Shown here piece by piece: positions 60,037 to 63,932 of a DNA stretch of 64,000 nt. Under the pieces are notes generated by a model. That model ran no database searches and was not told the DNA's origin. It was given only the letters and a program-made list of their open reading frames with translations. Numbering within the stretch: the stretch's first letter is position 1; each line of letters opens with the position of its first letter. This DNA is from Shigella phage KPS64, in sequence record MK562502, one strand, 5' to 3'. The position numbers were made by a program, and so were the translations under genes.

Positions 60037-60112
60037 TGGAGTATCGGAAGGGACTCGAACCCTCATAAGCCTGTTTTGCAGACAGGAACATAACCATTTC
60101 TGACACCGACAC
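60037..60112 (-). tRNA. tRNA-Cys (anticodon GCA)
   Basis: Hand-folded cloverleaf; anticodon loop CTGCAAA on a perfect 5-bp stem; T-loop TTCGAGT; 3' CCA encoded. Confidence 0.55.
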
Positions 60113-60118
60113 ATAATT

Positions 60119-60211
60119 TGGAGGAAGATACCAGACTTGAACTGGTACGCCGATTTCTCGGTTACTGGCAGTTTAGCAAACTGCTCCCTTACCTTTTAGG
60201 GTTAATCTTCC
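60119..60211 (-). tRNA. tRNA-Ser (anticodon GCT), type II
   Basis: 93 nt; perfect acceptor stem GGAAGAT/ATCTTCC; anticodon loop TTGCTAA; long variable arm with CCGA-GAAA-TCGG stem; 3' CCA encoded. Confidence 0.65.
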
Positions 60212-60212
60212 A

Positions 60213-60947
60213 TTATTTGTTCAGAGCTTCTTTCATCTCTGGAGTTGCGATAGTATCAATCACACCAGTTTTACATGAATCATCAAACCAGCTTGGTAGA
60301 ACATTCGCAAGGAAACCATTAATATTTGTTTTCAGGTATTCTGCAATCAGTGCTGCTTCATCTGCAATCATCTGAGTTACTTCATTAGCATATGCAGTAA
60401 TCTTTGCAATACCATCATTAATCGCTGTAACGGCCTGTGTAGCGAGTTCAGAGATTGTATCTAGTCCTTGGTCGATTGCATCTTGCAAATCGCTTAGAAC
60501 GCTATTTACAGCGTCTATGGAGGTATTAATCAAATCCATCGCTTTGTTACCGTACTCGGTAGCTACGCCCATGATACCACTAAACGGTGTACATCCAACC
60601 TGTTCACCTGCTGCTCCCATAACGTTAGAGTAACCTTTAGCTACTTGCATACGTTGTGAAAACTCATCTACAGACTTTTGTCCATACTCAGTAAGTGTAC
60701 TTGTCGTTGAAGTTGTACTTCCAAGGCTTGTTGTGAAGCTTCCTAATAAGGCTGTTGTCAGTCCAGCAGCAACTAAAATCTGTTGTGTAGCTGGGTCTGT
60801 TACAGAACTAATCGAGTTAACTAATGATTGAGAGGCAGCTACAGTACCACCAAGAACTGCTGCACCAGTAATAAGAGGGTTTGAGAAACCATTACCAGTT
60901 TTAAGGAGATTAAAAATCTCTTTACTTTGTTCTGTCATCTCTTTCAT
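60213..60947 (-). CDS. hypothetical protein embedded in the tRNA array
   Basis: Track ORF 60213..61010 trimmed to MKEMTEQ, preceded by AGGTG, because the longer ORF runs into the next tRNA. Confidence 0.4.
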   Translation of the reverse strand: MKEMTEQSKEIFNLLKTGNGFSNPLITGAAVLGGTVAASQSLVNSISSVTDPATQQILVAAGLTTALLGSFTTSLGSTTSTTSTLTEYGQKSVDEFSQRMQVAKGYSNVMGAAGEQVGCTPFSGIMGVATEYGNKAMDLINTSIDAVNSVLSDLQDAIDQGLDTISELATQAVTAINDGIAKITAYANEVTQMIADEAALIAEYLKTNINGFLANVLPSWFDDSCKTGVIDTIATPEMKEALNK

Positions 60948-60963
60948 TATGCACCTATAAAGT

Positions 60964-61040
60964 TGGTAGCCCATCGGGATTTGAACCCTGTTCTCATGTT
61001 TTTCAGACACGCGCTTTAACCATATAAGCTAATTGAGCTA
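60964..61040 (-). tRNA. tRNA-like, anticodon GAA (Phe), atypical
   Basis: Good anticodon and D arms and a 7-bp acceptor pairing, but 4-nt acceptor-D spacer, 4-nt variable loop and a 3-bp T-stem. Confidence 0.35.
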
Positions 61041-61046
61041 TTAAAT

Positions 61047-61123
61047 TGGGGTGACCTACGGGAATCGAACCCGTATAGACCATGTTCACAGCATGGGTCA
61101 TTATCCATTTATGATAAGGCCAC
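61047..61123 (-). tRNA. tRNA-His (anticodon GTG)
   Basis: Anticodon loop CTGTGAA; perfect D and T stems; discriminator C; CCA encoded. Confidence 0.65.
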
Positions 61124-61154
61124 ATTTAAGGACTCTCGTAAGAACCCTTAGAAG

Positions 61155-61230
61155 TGGCAGCAGTATAAGGATTTGAACCTTAATCTTTCAGCTTCAGAGG
61201 CTGGAGCATTGCCAGTTATGCTATACTGCT
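61155..61230 (-). tRNA. tRNA-Gln (anticodon CTG)
   Basis: Perfect acceptor, D and T stems; anticodon loop CTCTGAA; CCA encoded. Confidence 0.6.
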
Positions 61231-61236
61231 AATATT

Positions 61237-61315
61237 TGGTACTCCATATCGGATTCGAACCGATACATAACACAGATTTTAAATCTGGCCTCTCTGCCAA
61301 TTGGAGTAATGGAGC
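61237..61315 (-). tRNA. tRNA with anticodon TAA (Leu by anticodon), class-I-like
   Basis: Perfect T arm; anticodon loop TTTAAAA; 7-nt variable region rather than a long arm, so isotype is uncertain. Confidence 0.45.
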
Positions 61316-61317
61316 AT

Positions 61318-61393
61318 TGGCGGGGGATGATGGAGTTGAACCATCTTCTTCGATTTCAAAGACCGAGGTTTTAACCGTGTAAACTAATCCCCT
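61318..61393 (-). tRNA. tRNA-Gln (anticodon TTG)
   Basis: Perfect D and T stems; anticodon loop CTTTGAA; A1-C72 mismatch; CCA encoded. Confidence 0.55.
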
Positions 61394-61619
61394 AACGAAC
61401 TCTTGAAAGAATATATGCGTTATTACATGTATCCTTGTTTTCTGGTAACATTGTTTCAAAGATAACTTGCTTTAGTTCTAATCCAGCAAAATTGTAGACA
61501 ACTTTTCTGACTTCTAGAGGGTCAGCTTTCCAACCAACTCTGATAAAGAAAGTATCTCCAAATCTCCCTGTTTCAAGTTTGTCATCTTCTGGGTGTTTTT
61601 CAACTATAAGTCTAAACAT
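61392..61619 (-). CDS. hypothetical small protein embedded in the tRNA array
   Basis: 75-aa ORF preceded by AAAGGGG; stop overlaps the 5' end of tRNA-Gln(TTG) by 2 nt. Confidence 0.35.
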   Translation of the reverse strand: MFRLIVEKHPEDDKLETGRFGDTFFIRVGWKADPLEVRKVVYNFAGLELKQVIFETMLPENKDTCNNAYILSRVR

Positions 61620-61637
61620 AACTCACCCCTTTAAATT

Positions 61638-61714
61638 TGGTGCAGAATAGAGGATTCGAACCCCTAACTAACAACTTCGTAGGTTGCTGCTCTGTCCATT
61701 TGAACTAATTCTGC
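61638..61714 (-). tRNA. tRNA-Arg (anticodon ACG)
   Basis: Perfect acceptor stem; anticodon loop CTACGAA; CCA encoded. Confidence 0.65.
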
Positions 61715-62548: not shown

Positions 62549-62555
62549 ATTAAAT

Positions 62556-62570
62556 CTTTGTAGAGAACTG
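62556..62570 (-). promoter_or_regulatory. recurrent 15-mer CTTTGTAGAGAACTG upstream of a tRNA unit
   Basis: Identical 15-mer at 63790-63804; related TTTGTAGAG at 63977-63985; each lies 7-43 nt upstream (minus-strand sense) of a tRNA 5' end. Confidence 0.3.
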
Positions 62571-62803
62571 CTAAGACGCCAAAGCAACAATGGTATCAAA
62601 TGCCTTAACAATTCTCTAAAAAGACCTATTGGCCTCTGCATAGTCTTGCTTAATCCGGTGACTAGAACCTTTGGAGAGCTTGATACTATCTCTTCTCCGT
62701 GACACCTACTAGGTGCTTTACCAGTGCCGTGTACGCCAATACACGAAGAGGAAACCTGAAACACTTGCTCGAACAAATAGTCTCAGCTTTAAATCTTATT
62801 AGG

Positions 62804-62891
62804 CGGTAGATAAAGGAGTCGAACCCTCACCGTATCTCTACAATGGCAATAGTTTTCAAGACTATTTGGCTTCCATTAGCCGCTACCTACC
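62804..62891 (-). tRNA. tRNA-Ser (anticodon TGA), type II
   Basis: 88 nt; acceptor GGTAGGT/ATCTACC; perfect anticodon stem ATAGT/ACTAT with loop CTTGAAA; about 20-nt variable arm; discriminator G; CCA not encoded. Confidence 0.55.
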
Positions 62892-62904
62892 CCTAATAAG
62901 ACTT

Positions 62905-62987
62905 TGGCATGGGACGGAGGATTCGAACCCCTTTGAGTAAGTTTTGGAGGCTTACGCACATGCCTTAGTGTCTTAACATCGTCCCAT
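62905..62987 (-). tRNA. tRNA-like with anticodon CCA (Trp by anticodon), atypical
   Basis: Perfect 7-bp acceptor stem ATGGGAC/GTCCCAT and canonical T-loop; anticodon loop CTCCAAA; about 8 extra nt between acceptor and D arm. Confidence 0.4.
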
Positions 62988-63152
62988 ACTATATTTCGAA
63001 GCTTACCCTGTTATCTCAACACTGTCAAGCTTCTTCTCAGATTATTTACATGTTCTGGAAAACATGAGATACAGACCACCTCCTTATGAGATTGACTCTT
63101 TCAAGTCAATGCGGAGACCCATAAAGGTCGTCATAGTAATCTGCTAACTAAT

Positions 63153-63271
63153 TGGCAGTCAAGGTAGGAGTCGAACCTACTTACTCTTGAGGGAGCTACC
63201 CTCGGCAACTTTCCGACTTTCGTTTATCTCTTAACGCGTATCTAAGATAACTTACTCGTGTTGTCTTGACC
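63153..63271 (-). ncRNA. 119-nt tRNA-like RNA with canonical T-arm and CCA end but non-tRNA body
   Basis: 3' end is a perfect T-arm (GTAGG-TTCGACT-CCTAC) + acceptor strand + CCA; best acceptor partner (GGTCAAG) lies 119 nt upstream; interior holds hairpins TTATCT...AGATAA and GAGGG-TAGCT-CCCTC, with no canonical D or anticodon arm. Confidence 0.3.
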
Positions 63272-63279
63272 ATTAAAAT

Positions 63280-63355
63280 TGGCACTCCGTATAGGACTCG
63301 AACCTATATATGAACTGTTTAGAAGACAGTTGCCTATCCTTTAGACTAACGGAGC
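63280..63355 (-). tRNA. tRNA-Arg (anticodon TCT)
   Basis: Perfect anticodon stem ACTGT/ACAGT with loop CTTCTAA; perfect T stem; CCA encoded. Confidence 0.6.
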
Positions 63356-63584
63356 ATTAATATTTTAAAGAGCACTCATTGCATTTAAGCCAAGCCCCTT
63401 AAGGGATGCTCTTTAGAATATTGCCCACTTTATTAATCATACCGTGGGCTAGTACGCCAAATTCTTTAACAGGGGGTTGGAAGACCCTGCTGGTGTTTAG
63501 CCTATTAAGCTACTGCCAGAAAAACATTATCGTTTGCATTTATTTTTAAGTTTTTAAAATAGACGCTACGCTAACGAAAACTAA

Positions 63585-63615
63585 GGTTATCTTAAAGTGG
63601 TCACATCTGAATGTC
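63585..63615 (-). promoter_or_regulatory. candidate sigma70-type promoter (minus strand) in the tRNA array
   Basis: Minus-strand TTGACA, 17-nt spacer, TAAGAT, just downstream (in transcript sense) of tRNA-Ile; would transcribe the 63356-63580 spacer and tRNA-Arg(TCT). Coordinates approximate. Confidence 0.35.
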
Positions 63616-63621
63616 AACAAC

Positions 63622-63696
63622 TTTATGAAATTGGTTGTAGGTGAGGGTATCGAACCCTCTTCTAACGGTTATCAGCCGTTTGCATTACCATTTATG
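63622..63696 (-). tRNA. tRNA-Ile (anticodon GAT)
   Basis: Perfect D, anticodon and T stems; anticodon loop CTGATAA; CCA encoded. Confidence 0.7.
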
Positions 63697-63698
63697 CT

Positions 63699-63775
63699 AA
63701 CCCACAATTGGAGGTTCAGATGGGAATCGAACCCACATTCATAGGGCTTATGAAACCCTTGCATTACCTTATCTG
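63699..63775 (-). tRNA. tRNA with anticodon CAT (Met, or lysidine-modified Ile)
   Basis: Perfect acceptor stem GGTTCAG/CTGAACC; anticodon loop TTCATAA; CCA encoded. Confidence 0.6.
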
Positions 63776-63856
63776 CGACTGAACCATTATAAGTTGCCCC
63801 TTTGTAGAGAACTGATTGAGTGGGTGTTTCCAGCCGCGCATGTGTTCTTCAGTTAA

Positions 63857-63932
63857 GGGGCGAATTTGGTAGAAGTGGAGGGATTCGAACCCGTCGCCTG
63901 TCAGATTAAAAGTCTGCCGCATCACCATTCTG
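63857..63932 (-). tRNA. tRNA-Lys (anticodon TTT)
   Basis: Anticodon loop CTTTTAA on a 4-bp stem; 3-bp T and D stems; CCA encoded. Confidence 0.5.

Follow-up and report, generated by a model that had tools for sequence, protein, structure and literature searches.

Short-arm leucine tRNAs and a putative tmRNA-like tag RNA in the tRNA array of the Felix O1-like Shigella phage KPS64

Large tRNA arrays are already known as gene clusters of Felix O1-like phages: the Felix O1 genome paper described 22 tRNAs together with a codon-usage argument (PMC3185647), and a dedicated study of the tRNA array of phage Sf14 followed in 2025 (PMC12482277). Here, we analyzed the corresponding array of Shigella phage KPS64 (sequence record MK562502) within a stretch of 64,000 nt, which we call the window throughout. 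ARAGORN reports 20 tRNA genes, all on the minus strand, which span positions 60037-63942. The arrays of Felix O1, wV8, Moogle and Sf14 show the same tRNAs, the same order, the same flanking genes and the same embedded small open reading frames (ORFs) as the window, and Sf14 is 96.6% identical to it over the array region. There is no substantive difference; a divergent tRNA-Leu(TAG), one of several Arg(TCT) alleles and a tRNA-like element termed X1 all vary among the relatives. That is, the array itself is ordinary for its phage group, and the points of interest are its leucine tRNAs, which have short variable arms, and a tag-like RNA in the spacer between the genes for tRNA-Ile and tRNA-Arg(TCT).

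With regard to the leucine tRNAs, a review lists a long variable arm for Leu tRNAs everywhere except in animal mitochondria (PMC9976931), and the type I tRNA-Leu(CAA) of Streptomyces coelicolor is a proven substrate of leucyl-tRNA synthetase (LeuRS) (PMC6614811). Beside the latter, our literature search found no other characterised bacterial short-arm tRNA-Leu. The phage Leu tRNAs resemble the S. coelicolor molecule in combining a Leu anticodon with a variable region of 5-7 nt and a normal cloverleaf, and they share the short variable region with animal mitochondrial tRNA-Leu. In contrast to S. coelicolor, all three phage Leu isoacceptors are short and the array holds no long-arm Leu gene. Furthermore, A73 is conserved in the phage Leu tRNAs, while it is not an identity element in S. 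coelicolor, and the phage would depend on an enterobacterial LeuRS, a type of enzyme that reportedly leaves the Streptomyces type I tRNA uncharged. The window's Leu tRNAs are also unlike the tRNA-Leu(UAG) of phage T5, which has 85 nt and a normal long arm.

An initial annotation of the window had pointed out that the three tRNAs with Leu anticodons (TAA, CAA and TAG) lack the long variable arm expected of Leu. This is indeed the case. The genes of Leu(TAA) (61237..61315), Leu(CAA) (61893..61970) and Leu(TAG) (62471..62548), all on the minus strand and called by ARAGORN, encode 76, 75 and 75 nt without CCA, and their variable regions count 7, 6 and 5 nt compared to 13-15 nt in E. coli leuZ, leuX, leuW and leuQ. 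The variable regions of these E. coli tRNAs form an extra stem-loop, while the phage Leu tRNAs stay below the arm of >10 nt by which type II tRNAs are canonically recognised. Both Ser tRNAs of the array retain long variable arms. Leu(TAA) and Leu(CAA) keep a D-arm of the bacterial Leu type, namely a 3-bp stem with the 11-nt loop CAAUUGGCAGA (host: RAAUYGGUAGA), and carry the full identity set for E. coli LeuRS (A73, A14, A15-U48, G18G19 and A20a). Leu(TAG) has A73, A14, A15, G18G19, A20a and U48 with an irregular D-stem and junction. The identity elements are as published for E. coli, for whose LeuRS the long arm is reported to be dispensable (PMC9976931). For Sf14, the isotype models of tRNAscan-SE rank Leu first for all three Leu tRNAs (PMC12482277). 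The retained identity set and Leu-type D-arm, together with this ranking, speak against the earlier suspicion that the genes are mis-assigned.

The genes also show clear signs of conservation. When enteric and Erwinia phages are compared, each Leu isoacceptor shows compensating changes in all four stems, with an unchanged D-loop. For Leu(CAA), 159 phage records show an identity of at least 99% next to flanking DNA with only ~85%, and the gene is 100% identical across a spread of the listed records from three enteric genera. No sequence similar to it was found in 5,426 complete E. coli genomes. Across ~290 genomes of coliphages, Salmonella phages and Erwinia phages only short-arm Leu tRNAs are present, and these are under clear purifying selection. 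One could still take the Leu-anticodon genes and the other irregular genes of the array for decaying pseudogenes or mis-calls without a role in translation, given their low Rfam scores (40.0 bits for Leu(TAG), 44.0 for Leu(CAA), 39.2 for Phe and 33.5 for Ser(TGA)), the pseudo marks set by tRNAscan-SE on His and Tyr in Felix O1 (PMC3185647) and the report that Sf14 phage tRNAs fold less stably than those of the host (PMC12482277). We consider this very improbable: stems are held by compensatory changes across genera (four in all), the near identity of Leu(CAA) persists next to ~15% flank divergence, the LeuRS identity elements are intact, and the same architecture is found in >100 unrelated viral contigs. 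Covariation and identity likewise contradict the notion that the Leu tRNAs are degenerate. Judged from their sequences, the three thus look like functional and genuine short-arm (type I) members of the tRNA-Leu family.

To assess how widespread this design is, we scanned for the D-arm motif TAYYCCAATTGGCAGAGR in IMG/VR (at least 120 stretches, contigs of 4-476 kb) and in one genome per bacterial species (at least 120 matches). ARAGORN resolved 113 of the 119 motif matches extracted from IMG/VR, and every one of these 113 is a Leu tRNA; they are 74-79 nt long and cover all six Leu anticodons. In the listed IMG/VR loci, 185 short Leu tRNAs compare to 41 long ones, while Ser and Tyr tRNAs stay long. 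Among the matches listed, the short-arm Leu design thereby occurs in more than 100 unrelated viral contigs. The bacterial scan returned short Leu tRNAs for 92 of the 120 matches listed; these mostly have the anticodon CAA and are lone genes of Actinomycetes (Rhodococcus, Mycobacterium, Streptomyces). The D-arm motif CCAATTGGCAGAG is common to the phage Leu tRNAs and the short Leu tRNAs of many Actinomycetes including Streptomyces. A full-text literature search, which leaves most subscription journals outside its coverage, yielded no description of short-arm Leu tRNAs in phages, and neither the Felix O1 genome paper nor the Sf14 paper mentions the variable arm or short-arm Leu tRNAs (PMC3185647, PMC12482277). 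The phage molecules would accordingly class as type I tRNA-Leu, which we did not find described before in phages.

The Leu(TAG) position deserves a separate look, as relatives hold two quite different alleles there. Moogle and wV8 carry a Leu(TAG) allele of standard design at the same array position as the divergent allele of the window. The anticodon arm of the latter equals that of the phage's own Val(TAC) save for anticodon base 36, i.e., the stem CCATC/GTTGG including a U-U mismatch is the same in both. This pattern suggests an exchange of alleles or arms within the array. A recent origin of Leu(TAG) as an anticodon mutant of Val(TAC) was considered and rejected: only the anticodon arm is shared, and SUSP2 holds the same allele with a different, fully paired stem. 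Given these sequences, recombinational arm exchange appears more likely than descent. Other placements were seen in Erwinia phages, which carry a short-arm tRNA-Leu with anticodon AAG (L007 5425-5504; L012 5426-5503); an unmodified A34 is unusual in bacteria. Erwinia Leu(AAG) occupies the site of enteric Leu(CAA), and Erwinia Leu(CAA) that of enteric Leu(TAG), which suggests anticodon switching among short-arm Leu genes.

The arm shared with Val(TAC) could also be taken to mean that the short-arm 'Leu' tRNAs receive a different amino acid, such that UUA, UUG or CUA would be partially recoded. Base 36 apart, the identity of the two anticodon arms fits such recoding, as do the near tie of the isotype scores of Sf14 Leu(TAG) (Leu 67.4, Ile2 65.7, Lys 63.4; PMC12482277) and the report that E. 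coli LeuRS charges type II tRNA-Leu only (PMC6614811). On the other hand, A73 and the Leu-type D-loop are found in all three tRNAs, and the use of Leu codons in the window shows no anomaly. ValRS identity requires A35 and C36, whereas position 36 of Leu(TAG) is G. In Moogle and wV8, a standard-design Leu(TAG) sits at the same position, therefore the two alleles appear interchangeable. We regard recoding as hardly credible, and leucine remains the expected amino acid for all three tRNAs.

To relate the array to codon supply, we compared the codon usage of 51 window ORFs with that of 34 E. coli ORFs (from a 50-kb E. coli sample) in terms of the ratio of relative synonymous codon usage (RSCU). 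The GC content is 39.6% in the window and 52% in the E. coli sample. Among the 19 tRNAs with a synonymous choice, 11 read codons with an RSCU of at least 1.5x the host value. The respective ratios are 13x for AGA, 3.9x for ACA, 2.5x for TCA, 2.4x for TTA, 2.0x for CTA as well as GGA, 1.9x for GTA, 1.85x for GCA, 1.7x for AAG and 1.6x for CAA as well as TTG. In sum, TTA, TTG and CTA account for 50% of Leu codons in the phage and for 25% in the host. This comparison supports the initial suggestion that the set serves codon supply, and the analyses of Felix O1 and Sf14 reached the same conclusion (PMC3185647, PMC12482277). The role best supported by the sequences is codon supply, or making up for host tRNAs as their pool decays late in infection. 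The earlier interpretation as a whole holds in so far as the Leu architecture is unusual and the set fits codon supply; its suggestion that the Leu tRNAs may be mis-assigned or degenerate does not.

We consider it likely, on the grounds of these comparisons, that the window holds a Felix O1-like array which supplies decoders for A/U-ending codons and whose genuine type I Leu tRNAs are charged by the host LeuRS. Gene content, architecture, conservation, covariation and codon-usage match of the array are direct observations; from these, we infer expression, processing and leucine charging of its tRNAs as well as a benefit to the phage. The array would probably be transcribed on the minus strand from several host-type promoters into multi-tRNA precursors, from which RNase P and the 3' processing enzymes of the host would release the individual tRNAs. 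Once mature, these would provide additional decoding capacity for A/U-ending codons, which are far more common in the 40%-GC phage than in the 52%-GC host, and could sustain translation, mainly of late genes, as the host tRNA supply drops. Since they retain every element known to be read by E. coli LeuRS, the Leu tRNAs would most likely obtain leucine from the host enzyme and decode UUA, UUG and CUA/CUG.

Several observations weigh against this picture. The type I tRNA-Leu(CAA) of S. coelicolor failed as a substrate of E. coli LeuRS, an enzyme said to charge only type II tRNAs (PMC6614811). The Leu(TAG) allele of the window combines an irregular D-arm with a 3-nt acceptor-D junction. Furthermore, TGC, AGC, ATC, CAG and AAA are read by array tRNAs, yet they are rarer in the phage than in the host. 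Finally, His lacks G-1, Met has U73, and for 14 of 26 Sf14 tRNAs the top-scoring isotype model is a non-cognate one (PMC12482277), so that some of the set may make poor substrates. Given phages with only short-armed Leu tRNAs on the one hand and an E. coli LeuRS reported as type II-only on the other, charging is a real and testable question. It matters for how LeuRS recognises its tRNAs, for the design of orthogonal tRNAs and for the idea that the arm was lost as a counter-defence.

The initial annotation had also proposed defence evasion, which can be formulated as an alternative main function: the array would have been selected to provide nuclease-resistant substitutes for cut host tRNAs, and the arm loss of the Leu tRNAs would delete a target or recognition element of a nuclease. 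A well-described case is AriB of the PARIS system, which cuts between positions 40 and 41 in U36AAUC|A41 of tRNA-Lys(UUU), Thr(UGU) and Asn(GUU); a U39-to-A change abolishes cleavage and A41-to-C lowers it (PMC12409363). Positions 36-41 read UAAUCA in E. coli Lys(UUU), UAAACC in T5 Lys(UUU) and UAAGCA in T5 Thr(UGU). The window shows UAAGGA in Thr(UGU) (62142..62218, minus strand, ARAGORN), i.e., U39-to-G, the same change as in the T5 tRNA-Thr, and UAAUCU in Lys(UUU) (63867..63942, minus strand, ARAGORN; Rfam 54.2 bits), which is changed at position 41. While T5 tRNA-Lys has both AriB-escape changes, the tRNA-Lys of the window has only the one at position 41. Against an evasion function, Lys(CUU) (62388..62463, minus strand, ARAGORN and Rfam) bears the exact AriB site UAAUCA; a host counterpart with its anticodon is absent in E. 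coli (PMC12482277). The 7-nt anticodon loops of the window mostly equal those of the host, and for Sf14 the same holds for 13 of 25 loops, among them Lys(UUU), Thr and the Arg tRNAs (Table 8 of PMC12482277). Nuclease escape was dismissed in the Sf14 study on the basis of the 7-nt loops and VapC alone (PMC12482277). That is, divergence at known nuclease target positions is present but partial.

For the variable arm itself, Septu and PtuAB of retron-Eco7 offer a precedent, as they cut tRNA-Tyr within its long variable arm, and phage tRNA-Tyr escapes by means of a different arm (PMC13096335, PMC12673091). By analogy, an arm-less tRNA-Leu would lack a site like the one cut in tRNA-Tyr, and the frequency of short-arm Leu tRNAs in unrelated phage arrays, in which Ser and Tyr stay long-armed, fits such a target loss. 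However, our literature search found no nuclease aimed at the variable arm of tRNA-Leu, and many Actinomycetes carry one chromosomal gene of the short-arm design, which is thus not phage-specific. Bacterial Schlafen proteins were considered as type II tRNA nucleases and dismissed, since their published cleavage lies in the anticodon arm without long-arm specificity. The tRNA region of T5 resembles the present one in that it combines a large array with promoters, small ORFs and RNAs annotated as 'tRNA-like stable RNAs of unknown function', and its array members include nuclease-resistant tRNA-Lys, Thr, Asn and Tyr. Taken together, we rate defence evasion as the main selected function as doubtful, and codon supply with host-charged Leu tRNAs as the best explanation.

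The second point of interest is located in the 276-nt spacer between tRNA-Ile and tRNA-Arg(TCT), which contains in this order a promoter, an A-rich leader, a tag frame and a structured RNA. The sigma-70-like promoter TTGACA-17-TAAGAT (63589..63617, minus strand) is the best match of the region with 10/12 positions and would drive the RNA described next. Its TTGACA hexamer is kept in most of 28 aligned relatives, with a different sequence in a few, and an Erwinia phage has the equivalent promoter TTGACA-17-TAATCT. The conserved structured RNA (63356..63584, minus strand), which we refer to as the tag RNA, is like the mRNA-like part of transfer-messenger RNA (tmRNA). It consists of the A-rich leader, the tag frame, a stop-codon helix, an H-type pseudoknot, a hairpin and a variable terminal hairpin, and ends at the 5' end of tRNA-Arg(TCT). 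The tag frame GCA AAC GAT AAT GTT TTT CTG GCA GTA GCT TAA TAG (63502..63537, minus strand) would encode ANDNVFLAVA before two stops, compared to AANDENYALAA as the tag of E. coli tmRNA. The frame has no in-frame start codon, and upstream indels that differ among relatives break any longer frame. An alternative ORF from an ATG in the region (MQTIMFFWQ) was discarded, as it is not conserved in the Erwinia phage.

The encoded peptide is conserved across the variation of the frame. ANDNVFLAVA occurs in 27 IMG/VR contigs, where the search pattern itself required the peptide, and relatives gathered without this bias show synonymous changes in the tag, with GAT->GAC and TAA->TGA in the wV8 type. Erwinia phages encode ANDAQFLAVA with 3 synonymous and 2 non-synonymous codon changes, and one contig has the variant ANDNAFLAVA. 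With regard to structure, all 23 of 23 proposed pairs form on an alignment of eight sequences; 6 of these pairs are compensatory, including the pseudoknot change CCAA/UUGG -> CCGA/UCGG. No shuffle or slid register reaches the score of the proposed structure, which was derived from the same eight sequences used to score it, and this favours the fit. The stop codons lie in a hairpin loop within a closing helix, and the hairpin forms in all eight sequences.

Rfam hits at the tag RNA all stay below the gathering thresholds (RF04321 with 34.7 vs. 47, RF01849 with 20.8 vs. 50 and RF00023 with 15.2 vs. 47 bits). The only non-tRNA Rfam families that match the region with E <0.01 are three tmRNA families, with weaker tmRNA-family hits in the region of the Erwinia phage. 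The best such match uses the T-arm of the neighbouring tRNA-Ile, therefore its tRNA-like part is spurious. ARAGORN with option -m reports no tmRNA at default settings in the window, and under relaxed settings a false 'permuted tmRNA' that borrows a neighbouring tRNA. With tmRNA (SsrA, including two-piece permuted and phage-array forms) the tag RNA shares an A-rich leader, a GCA resume-like codon and a 10-codon AND...LAVA frame with a hydrophobic C-terminus as well as a double stop in a hairpin loop with a subsequent pseudoknot. Unlike in tmRNA, no tRNA-like domain with G3-U70 and A73 that is joined to or paired with the tag RNA was found in the window, and the RNA stops where an ordinary tRNA begins. 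A scan for T-arm-like motifs outside the called tRNAs in KMM2 and SunLIRen, and folding of X1, a second tRNA-like element (X2) and the Asp-Lys spacer, returned no partner of the tag RNA. These sequence features suggest that the spacer holds a conserved tmRNA-like tag module that is probably translated. If functional, the tag RNA would be the first tmRNA-like tag template that lacks its own tRNA-like domain.

A covariance model of the tag RNA had no hits in 92 other IMG/VR tRNA-array loci, so the element appears confined to Ounavirinae; some of these other phage arrays carry ordinary or permuted tmRNAs. The Felix O1 and Sf14 papers do not describe a tag-like RNA (PMC3185647, PMC12482277), none of the examined annotations of relatives marks it, and the full-text literature search, with the coverage given above, found no tmRNA-like element in Felix O1-like phages. 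An observation at the adjacent Arg(TCT) site concerns wV8-type Felixounaviruses (L008/L010; 13 of 28 aligned rows). At the position of window 63355-63280, these have a tRNA-like element without D-arm, with a TCT anticodon loop, a 23-nt variable region, C1-G72, G3-U70 and A73. That is, an alanine-type acceptor stem is combined with an Arg anticodon directly downstream of the tag RNA.

Next to the Arg(TCT) gene lies X1, a tRNA-like RNA of 119 nt (63153..63271, minus strand), identified by relaxed ARAGORN and RNAfold. It has a 7-bp acceptor stem (GGTCAAG/CTTGACT), a T-arm (GTAGG-TTCGACT-CCTAC), G73-CCA and an ~80-nt insert with two hairpins. Its acceptor shows G1-U72 and G73, i.e., no alanine identity. 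One internal hairpin co-varies in SUSP2; among the relatives, only those of Mooglevirus and Suspvirus have X1. Between X1 and the 5' end of the tag RNA, a 7-bp match (AACGAAA/UUUCGUU) was noted, which is invariant in enteric phages and lies in a different register in the Erwinia phage. As a partner essential to the tag RNA, X1 was rejected, since many Felixounaviruses keep the tag RNA without X1. A comparable tRNA-like element is found in Erwinia phage SunLIRen just upstream of the tag RNA (L007, minus strand, ~6200-6450). X1 also recalls the 'tRNA-like stable RNAs of unknown function' that are annotated in T5.

A broader reading would join both points of interest, namely that the Ounavirinae array holds two undescribed devices: a short-arm Leu set charged by the enterobacterial LeuRS and a tag RNA used via a trans-translation-like route. 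The short Leu arm may have been selected for removing the target of variable-arm nucleases, and the tag RNA might act together with another tRNA-like RNA, namely X1 or a relative of it, or rely on the SmpB/tmRNA machinery of the host. We treat this combination as speculative and rather improbable. If it were true, enterobacterial charging of short-arm Leu tRNAs would contradict the view of E. coli LeuRS as type II-only, and the phage would re-tag stalled host or phage peptides via the tag RNA.

Further elements follow downstream of X1. A 13-nt Shine-Dalgarno-like stretch, TAAGGAGGTGGTC (63074..63086, minus strand), is complementary with one G-U pair to the 3' end of 16S rRNA. Most enteric relatives retain its core GGAGGTGG (63082-63075), and the Erwinia phage has all 13 nt. 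Downstream of TAAGGAGGTGGTC, no conserved ORF was found in the enteric or Erwinia phages compared. The stretch is immediately followed by the conserved hairpin CATGTT-TTCCAG-AACATG (63049..63066, minus strand), and at the same place the Erwinia phage has a different hairpin, CCTGAC-TGTCAGG. Across the arrays compared, enteric and Erwinia alike, the stretch lies downstream of the tag RNA with one tRNA gene between them (plus X1 in the window).

Just upstream of X2 lies a second promoter-like site, TTGACA-17-TAAGCT (63000..63028, minus strand), which is conserved in relatives and falls below the threshold of the consensus scan. X2 is a tRNA-Trp-like element of 83 nt (62905..62987, minus strand), which is reported by relaxed or mitochondrial ARAGORN only and has no Rfam hit. 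It shows a CCA anticodon in the loop CCUCCAAAA (9 nt unless a C-A pair is counted), an oversized D-loop and an encoded CCA. The identity elements of E. coli TrpRS, i.e., CCA anticodon, G73 and A1-U72, are present, with the rules in part from a review (PMC9976931). The anticodon stem of X2 co-varies among relatives (GTAAG/CTTAC vs. ACGG/CCGT), and wV8 carries a 71-nt Trp(cca) gene at its position. From its sequence, X2 is best read as an aberrant tRNA-Trp. The Trp tRNA listed in the initial annotation corresponds to this element (62987-62905, minus strand); it exists as a tRNA-Trp-like sequence, but neither default ARAGORN nor Rfam calls it.

For the remainder of the array, that annotation's anticodons (Cys, Ser x2, Phe, His, Gln x2, Leu x3, Arg x2, Val, Thr, Gly, Ala, Lys x2, Ile and Met) agree exactly with the ARAGORN/Rfam set of 20 tRNAs, and its count of about 22 genes is a fair one when X1 and X2 are added. 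With regard to RF00005, 19 of the 20 tRNAs pass the Rfam gathering score; the 20th, His, reaches 49.3 bits with filters relaxed. CCA is encoded by nearly all tRNA genes of the array, and Ser(TGA) is the sole gene without it (ending in GCC-T). The extra nucleotides noted earlier at the acceptor-D junction are seen as 3-nt junctions in the ARAGORN folds of Leu(TAG), Phe(GAA) and Ser(GCT). The array extends past the window end, and the closest relative has further genes for Asp, Asn, Met, Glu and Pro.

The other genes, all on the minus strand and called by ARAGORN, are as follows in the direction of transcription. Met(CAT) (63709..63785; Rfam 55.1 bits) has U73 in place of A73, which is unusual for Met. 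Ile(GAT) (63632..63706; Rfam 63.4 bits) and Arg(TCT) (63280..63355; Rfam 52.7 bits) enclose the tag RNA, and relatives have other alleles at the latter site. Ser(TGA) (62802..62891) with its long variable arm is followed, beyond Leu(TAG) and Lys(CTT), by Ala(TGC) (62306..62381; G3-U70 and A73) and Gly(TCC) (62225..62299; also Rfam). Val(TAC) (61972..62046) directly precedes Leu(CAA), and Arg(ACG) (61638..61714), Gln(TTG) (61318..61393) and Gln(CTG) (61155..61230) are supported by both ARAGORN and Rfam. His(GTG) (61047..61123) encodes U at position -1 and not G, such that the G-1 needed for HisRS recognition and His identity is not encoded; the gene is labelled a pseudo-tRNA in Felix O1, wV8 and Mushroom (PMC3185647 and GenBank annotation). 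Phe(GAA) (60964..61039) has an irregular acceptor stem and T-arm, i.e., the 7-66 pair is mismatched and the T-loop has 6 nt in the ARAGORN fold. The array ends with Ser(GCT) (60119..60211; long variable arm) and Cys(GCA) (60037..60112), downstream of which an intrinsic-terminator-like hairpin followed by a T run is located (59862..59879, minus strand).

By its sequence, the window belongs to the Felix O1-like phages (Ounavirinae, genus Mooglevirus). Over 4.5 kb, the array region shares 98.1% identity with Citrobacter phage BSwM KMM2 and 92.7% with Moogle, with 92-98% across Mooglevirus genomes. About 300 GenBank records carry an annotation of the array. In total, 299 phage records match the array region; almost all are of Ounavirinae type, with the hosts Escherichia, Salmonella, Shigella, Citrobacter and Erwinia. 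The tRNA order, the small embedded ORFs and the flanking genes are common to Mooglevirus, Felixounavirus, Suspvirus and Kolesnikvirus, and the tRNA order is identical in the relatives' loci L001, L008, L009, L010 and L011. The array lies between a DUF2828 'RNA-binding protein' gene, seen in relatives only since it falls outside the window, and the terminase large-subunit gene with the late-gene block; the window has a 538-aa ORF at 57988-59604, and the relatives' annotation places terminase at the equivalent position. In all relatives, the gene directly upstream of the array encodes a 471-aa protein with DUF2828 and DUF7788 (phrog_850, 'RNA-binding protein'; L001 8760-10175, minus strand, beyond the window end), for which no match was found in PDB or NCBIfam. 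By analogy to Ro60 and its Y RNAs, this protein might partner tRNA-like RNAs; in X1, considered as such a Y-RNA-type partner, the Y-RNA motif GNCGAAN0-1G has no exact match.

Three ORFs without assigned function are embedded in the array, all on the minus strand. They comprise 244 aa (60213..60947; DUF7217, phrog_2114), 75 aa (61392..61619; phrog_14202) and 70 aa (61664..61876; phrog_10765, annotated in Moogle and SUSP2), respectively. The 70-aa ORF runs 51 nt into the tRNA-Arg(ACG) gene, such that its C-terminus is encoded by tRNA sequence.

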